64,000 bases of DNA from Escherichia phage ECD7, in the sequence record NC_041936.1, one strand, 5' to 3'. Positions within the stretch are counted from its first letter, which is position 1, and each line of letters opens with the position of its first letter. Of this stretch, positions 1,457 to 64,000 are shown in pieces. The position numbers and the translations under genes are program-made. The notes under the pieces are model-generated. The model saw only the letters and a program-made list of their open reading frames with translations, did not search any database and had not been told where the DNA came from.

Positions 1457-1948
1457 TCATACGGTCGCGCGTTTGCTTGTATTCGCGGATAGCACCGATT
1501 CGGCTAGGCATACCATCCAGTACGCTCTTAATCCTTCTAGGGTAGTGATTTTAGCAATGCTATTATGTAACCCCATCTTATCGGTCAACTGAATGTCGTA
1601 GGCTTCCATAAGCAGACCCAGACGTTCTAAAGTTAGGTCTTCTTCTTTTTCTTCCGATTCTGGAATCTTAGGTTCAATAGTAACTTCGGTAAAGAAACGA
1701 CGCTCACCCGACCAAAACCACACGCCGGAACAACCAATAGGGGATTCTTTTAACGTCATAGAGTCGTAACCACTGCCGATAATAGTAATTTCTCTAACAT
1801 CACCATCATCGTCAAGGTCTTCTACCCTAAACGGGCGACCAGCCAACAAGTCAACAATACATCTGTTAATAGACGACGAAAATTTAGTCAGTTCGGCTTT
1901 CGACGCTTCGCATTCAATCTTGTAAGTTTTACCAACTTCCCATTCCAT
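1457..1948 (-). CDS. hypothetical protein, KWExGKTY module family
   Basis: ORF track 1457..1957; MEWEVGKTYK start and ERRFFTEV motif. Confidence 0.5.
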   Translation of the reverse strand: MEWEVGKTYKIECEASKAELTKFSSSINRCIVDLLAGRPFRVEDLDDDGDVREITIIGSGYDSMTLKESPIGCSGVWFWSGERRFFTEVTIEPKIPESEEKEEDLTLERLGLLMEAYDIQLTDKMGLHNSIAKITTLEGLRAYWMVCLAESVLSANTSKRATV

Positions 1949-1958
1949 AATAATCACC

Positions 1959-11700: not shown

Positions 11701-11708
11701 CAGTTTTT

Positions 11709-12377: not shown

Positions 12378-12385
12378 CAACTTTT

Positions 12386-25096: not shown

Positions 25097-25254
25097 TCAC
25101 CAAACAAATAAGAAAAAAGCCATATCAACAGAAACGAGGCAATTGATCCGGCAAGCAAAATGATATTAGAGAATCCGCCGTCTATCCAGCGACAAAACAG
25201 AATACGCCAGTATAGAAGCATAAACCCAGTACAAAGCATACTATAAGCAACCAT
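25081..25254 (-). CDS. small hydrophobic protein (57 aa, not in ORF track)
   Basis: Hand-translated MVAYSMLCTGFMLLYWRILFCRW...; fills an otherwise non-coding gap. Confidence 0.3.
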   Translation of the reverse strand: MVAYSMLCTGFMLLYWRILFCRWIDGGFSNIILLAGSIASFLLIWLFSYLFGEWDLL

Positions 25255-53289: not shown

Positions 53290-53874
53290 ATGGCATATTA
53301 TTATCTATATCAAATAACAAATAATTTAAATGGGATGGTCTATGTTGGTATGAGAACGTCCAAAAAACCAATAGAAAAGGATTCTTATTGGGGGAGCGGA
53401 AAACGAATTAAAAGAGCAATAAAAAAGTATGGAATAGAGAACTTCACAAAAACTATTCTTTCCACACACAACACGTTAGAAGAACTAGCTTTAGCAGAAA
53501 AAAAGATAGTGACTAAGGAATTTGTAGAAAGAGAAGATACATATAATATTGCTCTGGGTGGAGTGAATAGAGGTTCTTTGTGGGATGACATGGACGAAGA
53601 AACAAAAAATGAAGCAAGAAGAAAAATATCTGAAAAAGCATCCAGTCGAAAAAGAGAATCTCACTCAGACGAGACTAAAAATAAAATGAGTCAATCGGCA
53701 AAAAATAGAAAGAGAGATTGGGAAAATTTTAAAGGCGCAAGAAAAATTATGGCAGAAGGTGTTCTATACCTAACCACTCAAGAATGTTGTAGAAAGTATG
53801 GGATATCAGCCGCTTCTATGAGGAAACGAGTAAAGTCAACCGCAGAAAAATGGAAGGAGTTTTATTATGTTTGA
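53290..53874 (+). CDS. free-standing GIY-YIG homing endonuclease (Seg/I-TevI-like)
   Basis: 194 aa; N-terminal [23 protein letters not shown]...[16 protein letters not shown]...EELALAEKK fits the GIY-(x10)-YIG, Arg, Glu layout; AT-rich; between genes 13 and 14. Confidence 0.8.
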
Positions 53875-54619
53875 CTCTACATTATTTGCCAGATTGGAGT
53901 CACAGAAGGATTATGAGAACACTAGACAAACAGAAATTCTCAATCCTTATGTGAATTTCAATTCACATACAAATACACAAACTCTAGCCGATATTATGGT
54001 TGCCGAGTCTATACAAATGCGCGGCGTCGAGATGTACTACATACCGAGAGAATTTGTTAAACCTGATATGATATTTGGGGAGGACGTACAAAGCAAATTC
54101 ACTAAGGCGTGGAAGTTTGCAGCGTACATAAATTCTTTCGATGGGTATGAGGGTGCTGGCAATTTCTTTCAATCTTTCGGTTATACCGCTAATGATGAAT
54201 TAACCATAACCATAAATCCAAATTTATTCAAACATCAAGTAGACAACCAAGAGCCTAAATCCGGCGATTTGTTTTACATTCCTATGAGCAACGATTTATT
54301 CGAAATCTCATACGTCGAGCCATATCAGCCGTTTTTTCAGGCTGGCAAAAATGCCATGCGTAAAATTATTGCAGAGAAATTCGTGTATAGCGGCGAGGAA
54401 TTGCGACCAGAATTACAACGCAATGATGGAATTAATGTTGATGAGTTTGCGGATCTGGATCTTGCACCGATCACTAATCTGGACGGGTTAACAGATATCA
54501 ACTTAGATCAGTACAAAGAAGATAAGCAATTCAGAAGCGAAGGACAAGATTTTATTGATCCGTTTGATCCTATTAATGCAAGGGTTCACCTTTCGCCGAT
54601 TTTTGATAAATACTCATAA
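53867..54619 (+). CDS. 14: neck protein gp14
   Basis: 250 aa (T4 gp14 is about 256 aa); synteny. Confidence 0.8.
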
Positions 54620-55479: not shown

Positions 55480-58793
<3,314 letters not shown>

Positions 58794-61451: not shown

Positions 61452-63017
61452 ATGTTTAGTAGATTAAAAATGCTTGCGCGTTGGGCTGATTTTGACAACG
61501 ACAAATACGAAGAACAAATTAAAGATAAAGCAGAGTCTATCGCCGCACCTAAAAACAATGATGGTGCTACGGAAGTAGAAATTAATGATAATTTACCTGC
61601 TAGCGCGTGGAACTCTCTTACCCAGCAATTTTACAGCACCGACCAGAAAATCAGCACAACTAAGCAATTAGTTAACACATATCGCGGTTTGATGAATAAC
61701 CATGAAGTCGAAAACGCTGTACAAAATATCGTTAACGATGCGATTGTATTTGAAGAAGGTCATGAAGTTGTTTCATTAAATCTTGAGGCGACTGGCTTTA
61801 GTGAATCTGTAAAAGAGCGCATTCATGAAGAATTTAAAGATCTTTTAAACACTATCCAGTTTGATAGGCGCGGTCAGGATATGTTCCGTCGCTGGTATGT
61901 CGATTCGCGTATTTTCTTCCATAAAATAATCGGCAAAAATCCAAAAGATGGTATCGTAGAATTACGCCAGCTTGACCCACGTAATCTTGAATATGTTCGC
62001 GAGATCATTACAGAAGACACACCGGAAGGTAAAATTTATAAAGCAACGAAAGAATATTTCATTTACACTGTAGGCAATAGTTCTTATTGCGCGGGTGGTC
62101 AAGTATTCTCTCCTAATAGTCGCGTTAAAATCCCGCGTAGTGCTATTACATACGCTCACAGCGGCTTAATGGATTGCGATGATAAATATATCATTGGTTA
62201 TTTGCATCGGGCTGTTAAGCCAGCAAACCAGCTTAAATTGTTGGAAGACGCAATGGTCGTTTATCGTATCACGCGTGCACCGGAACGCCGAGTGTTCTTT
62301 ATTGATACCGGAAACATGAACAACCGCAAGGCTGCACAGCACATGAACTCAGTGGCACAGTCTTTTAAAAACCGCGTTGTTTATGATGCATCGACTGGTA
62401 AACTTAAAAACCAGCAAGCAAATCTATCAATGACAGAGGACTACTGGTTACAGCGTCGAGATGGTAAAGCAATCACCGACGTTACTACTTTACCAGGTGC
62501 ATCCGGTATGAGTGATATCGATGATATTCGCTACTTTAACCGTAAATTGTATGAAGCGTTACGCGTTCCATTGTCACGCAGCAATCTCTCCGATGCTAAT
62601 ATGGTGATCGGTGGTGATGGTTCAGAAATTACTCGCGATGAGTTGGAATTTTCGAAATTCATTAGAACTCTGCAATCACAGTTTTCGGAAGTATTGCGCG
62701 ATCCTCTGAAATATAATCTGATTCTCAAAAATGTAATTACGGAAGATGATTGGGATCGTGAAATAAATAATATCAAGGTGGTTTTCCATCGGGACTCTTA
62801 CTATACAGAAGTTAAAGACGCGGAAATTTTAGAACGTCGAATCGGTCTAATCGAACGTATTACACCTTACATTGGTAAGTATTTCTCTAACCAGACAGTG
62901 ATGCGTGACATTCTGAAATATACCGATGACCAGATGGACACCGAGAAGAAACAGATCGAAGAAGAAGCGAACGATCCGCGCTTTAAACAAACTCCCGATG
63001 AAATAGAGGATTTTTAA
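61452..63017 (+). CDS. 20: portal vertex protein gp20
   Basis: 521 aa (T4 gp20 is about 524 aa); synteny. Confidence 0.95.
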   Translation: MFSRLKMLARWADFDNDKYEEQIKDKAESIAAPKNNDGATEVEINDNLPASAWNSLTQQFYSTDQKISTTKQLVNTYRGLMNNHEVENAVQNIVNDAIVFEEGHEVVSLNLEATGFSESVKERIHEEFKDLLNTIQFDRRGQDMFRRWYVDSRIFFHKIIGKNPKDGIVELRQLDPRNLEYVREIITEDTPEGKIYKATKEYFIYTVGNSSYCAGGQVFSPNSRVKIPRSAITYAHSGLMDCDDKYIIGYLHRAVKPANQLKLLEDAMVVYRITRAPERRVFFIDTGNMNNRKAAQHMNSVAQSFKNRVVYDASTGKLKNQQANLSMTEDYWLQRRDGKAITDVTTLPGASGMSDIDDIRYFNRKLYEALRVPLSRSNLSDANMVIGGDGSEITRDELEFSKFIRTLQSQFSEVLRDPLKYNLILKNVITEDDWDREINNIKVVFHRDSYYTEVKDAEILERRIGLIERITPYIGKYFSNQTVMRDILKYTDDQMDTEKKQIEEEANDPRFKQTPDEIEDF

Positions 63018-63259
63018 ATGAAACAATTTATCGAAGCAATTAAAACTCGCGATCTAACGCTGATCGAAAAAGAATTTGATAAGATCATGGAGGCTAAAAA
63101 AGCCAGATCATCGAATCCCAGCGTGTCGAAATCGCATCCAGTATCATGATCGAAGGTGAAGAAGAAAAAGACCGCGATGATGAAGAAGATATGGAAGATG
63201 AGGACGACGAAGACGAAGATCGCAAAGAAGATAAAAAAGACAAAGAAGACGACGAATAA
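63018..63259 (+). pseudogene. 67: prohead core protein gp67 homolog disrupted by a -1 frameshift in an A6 run
   Basis: Frame 0 MKQFIEAIKTRDLTLIEKEFDKIMEAKK stops at 63147-63149; the -1 frame continues SQIIESQRVEIASSIMIEGEEEKDRDDEEDMEDEDD... to 63259; together about 80 aa, the T4 gp67 size. Confidence 0.6.
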
Positions 63260-63271
63260 TAGGAAGCCAAC

Positions 63272-63679
63272 ATGATTAAAGATTTTACTCCTAAAGCTGA
63301 CTTAGAAACTTTTCTGCCGGAAGCACAGGAAAAATTGGACATGTTGGCTATGTTTGAGTCAGAAGAACTATTGAAAATCGTTGAAGGTATCTCCGAGGAT
63401 GAGCCGGAACTGGCGGTAGCAATGCTGTCTATCATCGACGGAATTACTGTAAATGAAGCAATGGTTAAACATGTAAACGCACGCGGGGAAGTTGCACGTA
63501 AGAAAGATCGCAAAACCCGTGAGCGTAATGCTTACATGACTACTGGCCTAAGCAAAGCTAAACGCCGTCAAATTGCCCGTCGTGCTGCAAAAACCAAACG
63601 TGCAAATCCATCTATCGAACGTCATGCGGAACGTAAGCGCAAAAAAGCAATGCGTAAACGTAAGGCGTTAGGATTATAA
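63272..63679 (+). CDS. 68: prohead core protein gp68
   Basis: 135 aa basic C-terminus; between 67 and 21 as in T4. Confidence 0.75.
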   Translation: MIKDFTPKADLETFLPEAQEKLDMLAMFESEELLKIVEGISEDEPELAVAMLSIIDGITVNEAMVKHVNARGEVARKKDRKTRERNAYMTTGLSKAKRRQIARRAAKTKRANPSIERHAERKRKKAMRKRKALGL

Positions 63680-63690
63680 CAGGAAACAAC

Positions 63691-64000
63691 ATGGAAAAGA
63701 ACGAATTACTGATCGAACAATGGGGCGTTCCTTGTGCTCGCGGTAGTTCGTCATTGCTTGAATCATTTGATGATAAGGCTACAGGAAATCTCTATATTCA
63801 AGGGATTTTCCTGCAAGCCGAAACGGTAAACCGCAATAAACGCTGGTATCCTCGCAGTGTTCTAGAAAATGCGGTTACTAAATACATACATGAACAAGTT
63901 GAGACACATCAAGCTCTAGGCGAACTTAATCACCCAGCAAGAGCAATGCCAGATCCATCTAATGCTTGCATCATAATTGAAAAATTATGGTGGGAAGGTA
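63691..64000 (+). CDS. 21: prohead core scaffold protein and protease gp21 (5' part; runs off the window)
   Basis: Hand-translated MEKNELLIEQWGVP...IQGIFLQAETVNRNKRWYPRSVLENAV...ALGELNHP parallels the T4 gp21 N-terminus. Confidence 0.85.
   Translation, partial: MEKNELLIEQWGVPCARGSSSLLESFDDKATGNLYIQGIFLQAETVNRNKRWYPRSVLENAVTKYIHEQVETHQALGELNHPARAMPDPSNACIIIEKLWWEG

Follow-up and report, generated by a model that had tools for sequence, protein, structure and literature searches.

Introduction

Among the T4-type phages, gp67 (a precursor of internal peptides) is a prohead core protein whose gene, as annotated in RB49, Phi1, JSE and other members of Krischvirus, lies between gene 20 and genes 68/21. 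The T4 prohead core holds approximately 340 copies of gp67 (PMC9958956), the incorporation of the protein into that core and its cleavage by the gp21 protease are known for T4 (PMC9958956, PMC9026906), and it has been linked to the setting of head size (PMC9026906). The core proteins listed as not essential for T4 assembly are IPI-III, gp68 and Alt, and gp67 is absent from that list (PMC9958956).

The gene 67 locus presented here reads, in its assembled form, as two overlapping pieces in different frames, and it shares the letters AAAAAAG (63096-63102) with another known system, the −1 frameshifting of the Escherichia coli dnaX type, the features of which are the A AAA AAG heptamer, an upstream Shine-Dalgarno-like element and a downstream hairpin. 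A preliminary description of the locus had placed a −1 frameshift in its run of six A residues, and had offered a homopolymer sequencing or assembly error, a real pseudogene, and programmed slippage on A AAA AAG as the possible explanations.

Genomic context of gene 67

The window, by which the whole analysed stretch of 64,000 nucleotides is meant throughout, is that of a Krischvirus, i.e., an RB49-like, T4-type phage, and shows the gene order 20-67-68-21. A megablast search against the phage collection matched 57 records, all of them Krischvirus (RB49, Phi1, JSE, GEC-3S, kvi and others), at identities of 90-99.6%; as the top whole-region match in that collection, kvi, reaches only 98.4% over 24 kb, the window's own record is not part of it. 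Gene order was assessed by setting the window's open reading frames (ORFs) against the annotations of 011D4, Phi1, JSE and kvi and against the Pfam labels on 10 contigs, the relatives' annotation running through gene 20 (portal), gene 67 (prohead core protein, 79-80 aa), gene 68 and gene 21 (prohead protease).

Gene 20 (portal vertex protein; 61452-63017, plus strand) is an ORF of 521 aa whose protein is found in identical form on many Krischvirus contigs, with a Pfam Portal_T4 match, and is annotated as gp20 in Phi1 and kvi; its TAA (63015-63017) directly abuts the gene 67 ATG. Downstream, on the same strand, lie an intact gene 68 (prohead core protein; 63272-63679, 135 aa, gp68 in the relatives' annotation, with Pfam Phage_T4_gp68 found on its homologues) and, 12 nt after it, with the spacing seen in the relatives, the start of gene 21 (prohead protease; 63691-64000, where it exits the window), on the homologues of which Peptidase_S77 is found. 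Gene 67 is thereby found in its expected place within the head-gene cluster 20 (portal)-67-68-21 (protease)-22. On the minus strand, opposite genes 67 and 68, there is also a 139-aa antisense ORF (63094-63513), which is Ser-rich and mirrors the acidic GAA/GAT/GAC codons; it is very unlikely to be coding and was not considered a gene.

Two further observations were made elsewhere in the window. The terminase large subunit gene (gene 17, 55974-58790) has 938 codons here and in kvi versus 607 in Phi1, with an in-frame insertion of ~330 codons (about 56465-57456) that directly follows SRQLGK, ends in ...THN just before a T, and gives a LAGLIDADG_3 Pfam match at aa 364-422; the insertion resembles an intein carrying a homing endonuclease, and SRQLGK is taken, by our own interpretation rather than from any tool result, to be the Walker A motif of the ATPase. 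Between genes 13 and 14, a 194-aa ORF (53290-53874) corresponds to the SegC homing endonuclease of the Phi1 and kvi annotation.

Gene 67 as assembled and the identity of its repaired product

The gene 67 ATG at 63018 opens a frame of 43 codons, translating as MKQFIEAIKTRDLTLIEKEFDKIMEAKKARSSNPSVSKSHPVS, which runs to a TGA at 63147-63149. This 5' fragment (63018-63149, plus strand) consists of 28 native codons, whose residues 1-28 are identical to those of the relatives' gp67, followed by 15 out-of-frame codons and the stop, and its match to phrog_1064 is limited to residues 1-30. The remainder of the gene lies in the −1 frame (63104-63259, plus strand), which starts with QIIESQRVEIASSIMIEGEEEK..., reads ...SQIIESQRVEIASSIMIEGEEEKDRDDEEDMEDEDD... 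and continues through an acidic tail (...SQIIESQRVEIASSIMIEGEEEKDRDDEEDMEDEDDEDEDRKEDKKDKEDDE) to a TAA at 63257-63259, 12 nt before the gene 68 ATG at 63272. Within this 3' part there is a 37-codon ORF with an ATG start of its own (MIEGEEE..., 63146-63259, plus strand), the ATG of which overlaps the TGA of the 5' fragment as ATGA (63146-63149). A Pfam search with the assembled 43-aa and 37-aa pieces returned no match for either. The start, the 43-codon frame and its stop, the A6 run at 63096-63101 and the −1 frame up to 63257-63259 are thus all present as initially described, and the single uninterrupted frame of ~75-81 codons that would be expected of a gp67 gene is absent from the assembly and appears once a single C is restored.

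The protein obtained upon restoring that C is 80 aa long and aligns end to end with Pfam PF17634 (GP67; 1-80 of 80), scoring 44.9 bits (E = 1.6e-11) versus a curated cut-off of 27 bits, as well as with phrog_1064 ("prohead") over 1-80 of 81 (E = 1.1e-22), so that both family profiles are matched at full length, that of Pfam above its threshold. It differs from the gp67 of Phi1 by one extra residue and one Asp-to-Glu replacement, both in the acidic tail. With low-complexity filtering and a limit of E <= 1e-3, a tblastn search did not reach gp67 of T4 itself; what connects the gene to T4 is, accordingly, its place in the gene order together with the Pfam and PHROG profile matches. Judged by these profiles and by its position between genes 20 and 68, as proposed initially, the predicted repaired protein is a true gp67 homolog, resembling T4-type gp67 in its length once the base is restored, its helical N-terminal half and its acidic, Asp/Glu-rich tail, and differing from it in that the frame is broken, in this assembly only, by the loss of a C at 63103-63104. 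A second window-unique difference within the gene is found at 63229 in the tail, where the window has GAA (Glu) and all of the relatives inspected have GAC (Asp), giving RKEDKK versus RKDDKK or HKDDKK, a conservative change when read in the native frame.

Location of the missing base

The preliminary description had placed the shift within the A6 run, noting that one additional A would yield a single ORF of about 80 aa, and had suggested a comparison of A-run lengths in related genomes. When aligned to 011D4, Phi1, JSE and RB49, all of the sequences show A6, and over the first half of the gene they differ in length only once, two bases further on, where AAAAAAGCCCAGATC in the relatives corresponds to AAAAAAGCCAGATC in the window. 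A regular-expression count gave an A-run of six and a C-run of three in 15/15 related loci versus an A-run of six and a C-run of two in the window; the relatives having A6 and C3 and the window A6 and C2, the missing base is a C at 63103-63104. Over the site as a whole, the relatives read AAAAAAGCCCAG and the window AAAAAAGCCAG, and the A6 run (63096-63101, plus strand; codons AAA AAA, Lys27-Lys28), being of the same length in every relative inspected, is not the lesion. The frameshift site proper is the CC run at 63103-63104 (plus strand), which the alignment and the run counts alike set against CCC in the relatives (GCC CAG, Ala29-Gln30).

Seen at the level of nucleotide sequence, the gene 67 frameshift thus comes down to a single C missing from a CCC run outside of the A6 run. 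Adding an A does give an 80-codon ORF arithmetically, but the extra base carried by the relatives is a C, and the native protein reads ...MEAKKAQIIESQR..., that is, ...AKKAQII... and neither ...AKKKSQII... nor ...AKKSQII.... None of the relatives inspected shows the predicted seven A residues, and A-run length polymorphism as the cause was ruled out by the A6 present in all of the relatives inspected at base level.

Conservation of the intact gene among relatives

That gene 67 is split here by a single-base frameshift was borne out by comparison: with a 111-nt query (63050-63160), 57/57 Krischvirus records proved to be one base longer (112 nt over the full query), and none was identical. Residues 1-45 of gp67 are encoded in one uninterrupted frame in all 57 of these records, and at least 99% identity over those residues is seen in 41/57. 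Ten further contigs bearing a portal protein identical to that of the window, drawn from ENA metagenomes, Logan assemblies of sequencing runs and NCBI genomes, have gene 67 intact in 10/10 cases, at 75-81 aa, with the natural length variation of gp67 among them involving whole codons only and being confined to the acidic tail. An exact 31-mer with the C2 variant occurred nowhere in the viral, genome and metagenome collections scanned, while its C3 version was found by exact scan, and looking up the exact products (the 43-aa fragment and a frameshifted 250-aa gp14, for which see below) found no other carriers.

These comparisons bear directly on what we rank as the main rival to a technical artefact, namely that the one-base deletion is real, being a very recent mutation in the phage stock or a variant of metagenomic origin. 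Under such a reading, gp67 would be cut to 28 native and 15 junk residues, and the allele, null or hypomorphic, might be sustained through complementation within a mixed population; another possibility is that Krischvirus depends on gene 67 less than T4 does. The C is, after all, absent from the sequence as given, the window alone proves no error, and the intact downstream frame would fit a very recent event just as well as an artefact. Against this stand the uniqueness of the deletion with regard to the 57 records and 10 contigs and its absence from the three large collections, the abundance of gp67 in the core and its absence from the list of dispensable T4 proteins (PMC9958956), and the conservation of residues 1-45, which points to strong purifying selection. 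A real mutation would, moreover, require two more frameshifts, likewise unique and in conserved genes (one of them that of the neck protein gp14), to be present alongside it, and altogether we regard it as improbable, albeit still worth keeping in mind.

Other single-base losses in the window

The whole window was aligned to Phi1 and kvi, and indels with a local net length that is not a multiple of three were listed. Uncompensated 1-nt indels inside coding regions number exactly three; each is a deletion in the window and falls within a G/C run of 2-3 nt, gene 67 (plus strand; 63103-63104, CC in the window, CCC in the relatives) being the third of these unique coding deletions. The second virion gene concerned is gene 14 (neck protein; ORF 53867-54619, plus strand), where the window has G at 54578 and the relatives have GG, the last 10 residues are replaced, and the ORF is 250 aa long versus 246; 56/56 records are one base longer at this site, and, with a G added, the last 10 residues equal those of Phi1 exactly, in a protein matching Pfam T4_neck-protein. 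The remaining one is the homolog of ORF051/kvi_192 (hypothetical protein; ORF 1457-1957, minus strand), with a deletion at 1533-1534 (in plus-strand letters, CC in the window, CCC in Phi1 and ACC in kvi) that replaces the last 36 residues; 49/49 records are one base longer there, and adding the base again makes the last 36 residues exactly those of Phi1. Restoring a single base at each of the three sites gives full-length proteins.

The indels specific to Phi1 or to kvi are all located between genes or at gene boundaries, neither genome having coding indels of this kind. Since the repaired post-shift parts match Phi1 (with acidic-tail differences only in the case of gp67), there is no decay past any of the three shifts; pseudogene decay, another of the explanations offered initially, was ruled out by these post-shift sequences being identical or nearly identical to those of the relatives after a one-base repair.

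Two other kinds of length difference were seen in passing. Intergenic homopolymer runs at 12382, 27079, 28048 and 30823 (also at 11704 and 24471) differ in length, as assembled, from those of Phi1 and kvi, and several of those that are T-runs have beside them, on the minus strand, a recurring motif similar to GTTGTTGACA, which may represent the −35 box of an early promoter with an A-tract upstream of it. Relative to ORF106 of Phi1, the window also carries 1-nt and 14-nt deletions at 25189 and 25251, ~62 nt apart and netting 15 nt, a pair that would recode ~20 residues with the frame kept; kvi has no annotated gene there.

Recoding or split expression of gene 67 as an improbable alternative

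If the C deletion were real and heads were still assembled, full-length gp67 might be supplied by low-level −1 slippage on the A-run (U AAA AAA G), either by the ribosome or by RNA polymerase adding an extra A, resulting in an 80-aa product with Ala29 changed to Ser; alternatively, the N-terminal helix and the acidic tail might be made as separate peptides through termination-reinitiation at the ATGA (63146-63149). It is true that a −1 shift within 63096-63101 would give ...MEAKKSQIIES..., just one residue off the native sequence (the hypothetical shift-spanning peptide being ...EAKKSQIIESQR...), that tRNA-Lys can re-pair on A-runs, and that an ATG in frame with the 3' part shares bases with the TGA closing the 5' ORF.

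The details of the site, however, argue otherwise. The zero frame reads GCU AAA AAA GCC (AGA), whereas A AAA AAG requires codons starting from 63097, i.e., in the +1 phase, and the heptamer that is in phase, U AAA AAA, does not fit the X XXY YYZ pattern. The AAAAAAG heptamer occurs 20 times in the window versus 24.2 expected by chance, which shows no enrichment, and the downstream RNA (63102-63190, 89 nt) folds no better than its shuffles, with a minimum free energy of −15.1 kcal/mol versus a shuffle mean of −14.5 (z = −0.22; 73/200 shuffles fold as well). The two-frame layout is also not conserved, gene 67 being in a single frame in the 57/57 Krischvirus records and in the 10 further contigs, and, as relatives in which no shift is needed have identical sequence around the site, no signal for one can have been selected. 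Despite sharing its letters with the dnaX site, the locus consequently differs from it in having the heptamer out of phase, no hairpin beyond chance, no enrichment of the heptamer and no related genome that shifts. Programmed −1 frameshifting on A AAA AAG, as had been put forward, was therefore ruled out on the grounds of phase, heptamer frequency, downstream structure and conservation.

On a run of six A residues, slippage that is not programmed should be rare. A prohead requires ~340 copies of gp67 (PMC9958956). As to split expression, no Shine-Dalgarno sequence was found upstream of the ATG at 63146. Some leaky rescue is conceivable should the deletion be real, but we consider both slippage and separately made halves to be highly improbable, far more so than a plain recent mutation.

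Most plausible explanation and its implications

By far the most probable explanation, going by the comparative sequence data, is that the split of gene 67 is a sequencing or assembly artefact, in which one C was dropped from CCC, and that the gene is intact in the phage. The phage itself would have a normal, intact 80-codon prohead core gene 67, and the CCC run would have been under-called at 63103-63104 during sequencing or consensus building, giving rise to an apparent frameshift, with the same assembly probably having lost single bases in gene 14 and in the ORF051 homolog as well. A technical cause, rather than a mutation in the phage, is the most likely one, and is favored by the C loss being unique to the window and by the two similar unique one-base losses in conserved genes, none of the three deletions recurring among the roughly 50-70 relatives.

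It is unlikely that a viable phage would have real frameshifts in two of its virion genes (67 and 14) at once, and three consensus under-calls are much more likely than a viable phage with fresh frameshifts in these two as well as in another conserved gene. The pattern resembles that of short-homopolymer under-calls in comprising several one-base G/C-run deletions, unique to one assembly, that break conserved genes and leave the downstream frames untouched. It differs from the typical cases in that the runs here are short (2-3 nt), runs of 2-3 bases not being the most error-prone homopolymers, and the attribution to under-calling is one that we infer. Among the explanations offered initially, a sequencing or assembly error is hence the one favored by the evidence, albeit not as an error in the A homopolymer, as the missing base is a C.

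Should the deletion nevertheless be real, a core protein regarded as required in T4 could be lost or split in an RB49-like phage, and, were slippage or split expression to be true, gp67 would have to tolerate being split or made in small amounts; this analysis found no support for the loss or splitting of gp67 in an RB49-like phage. For the curation of this genome, gene 67, gene 14 and the ORF051 homolog should rather be treated as intact genes with consensus errors, or at least be flagged, and annotating any of the three as a pseudogene or a recoding site would be inappropriate.
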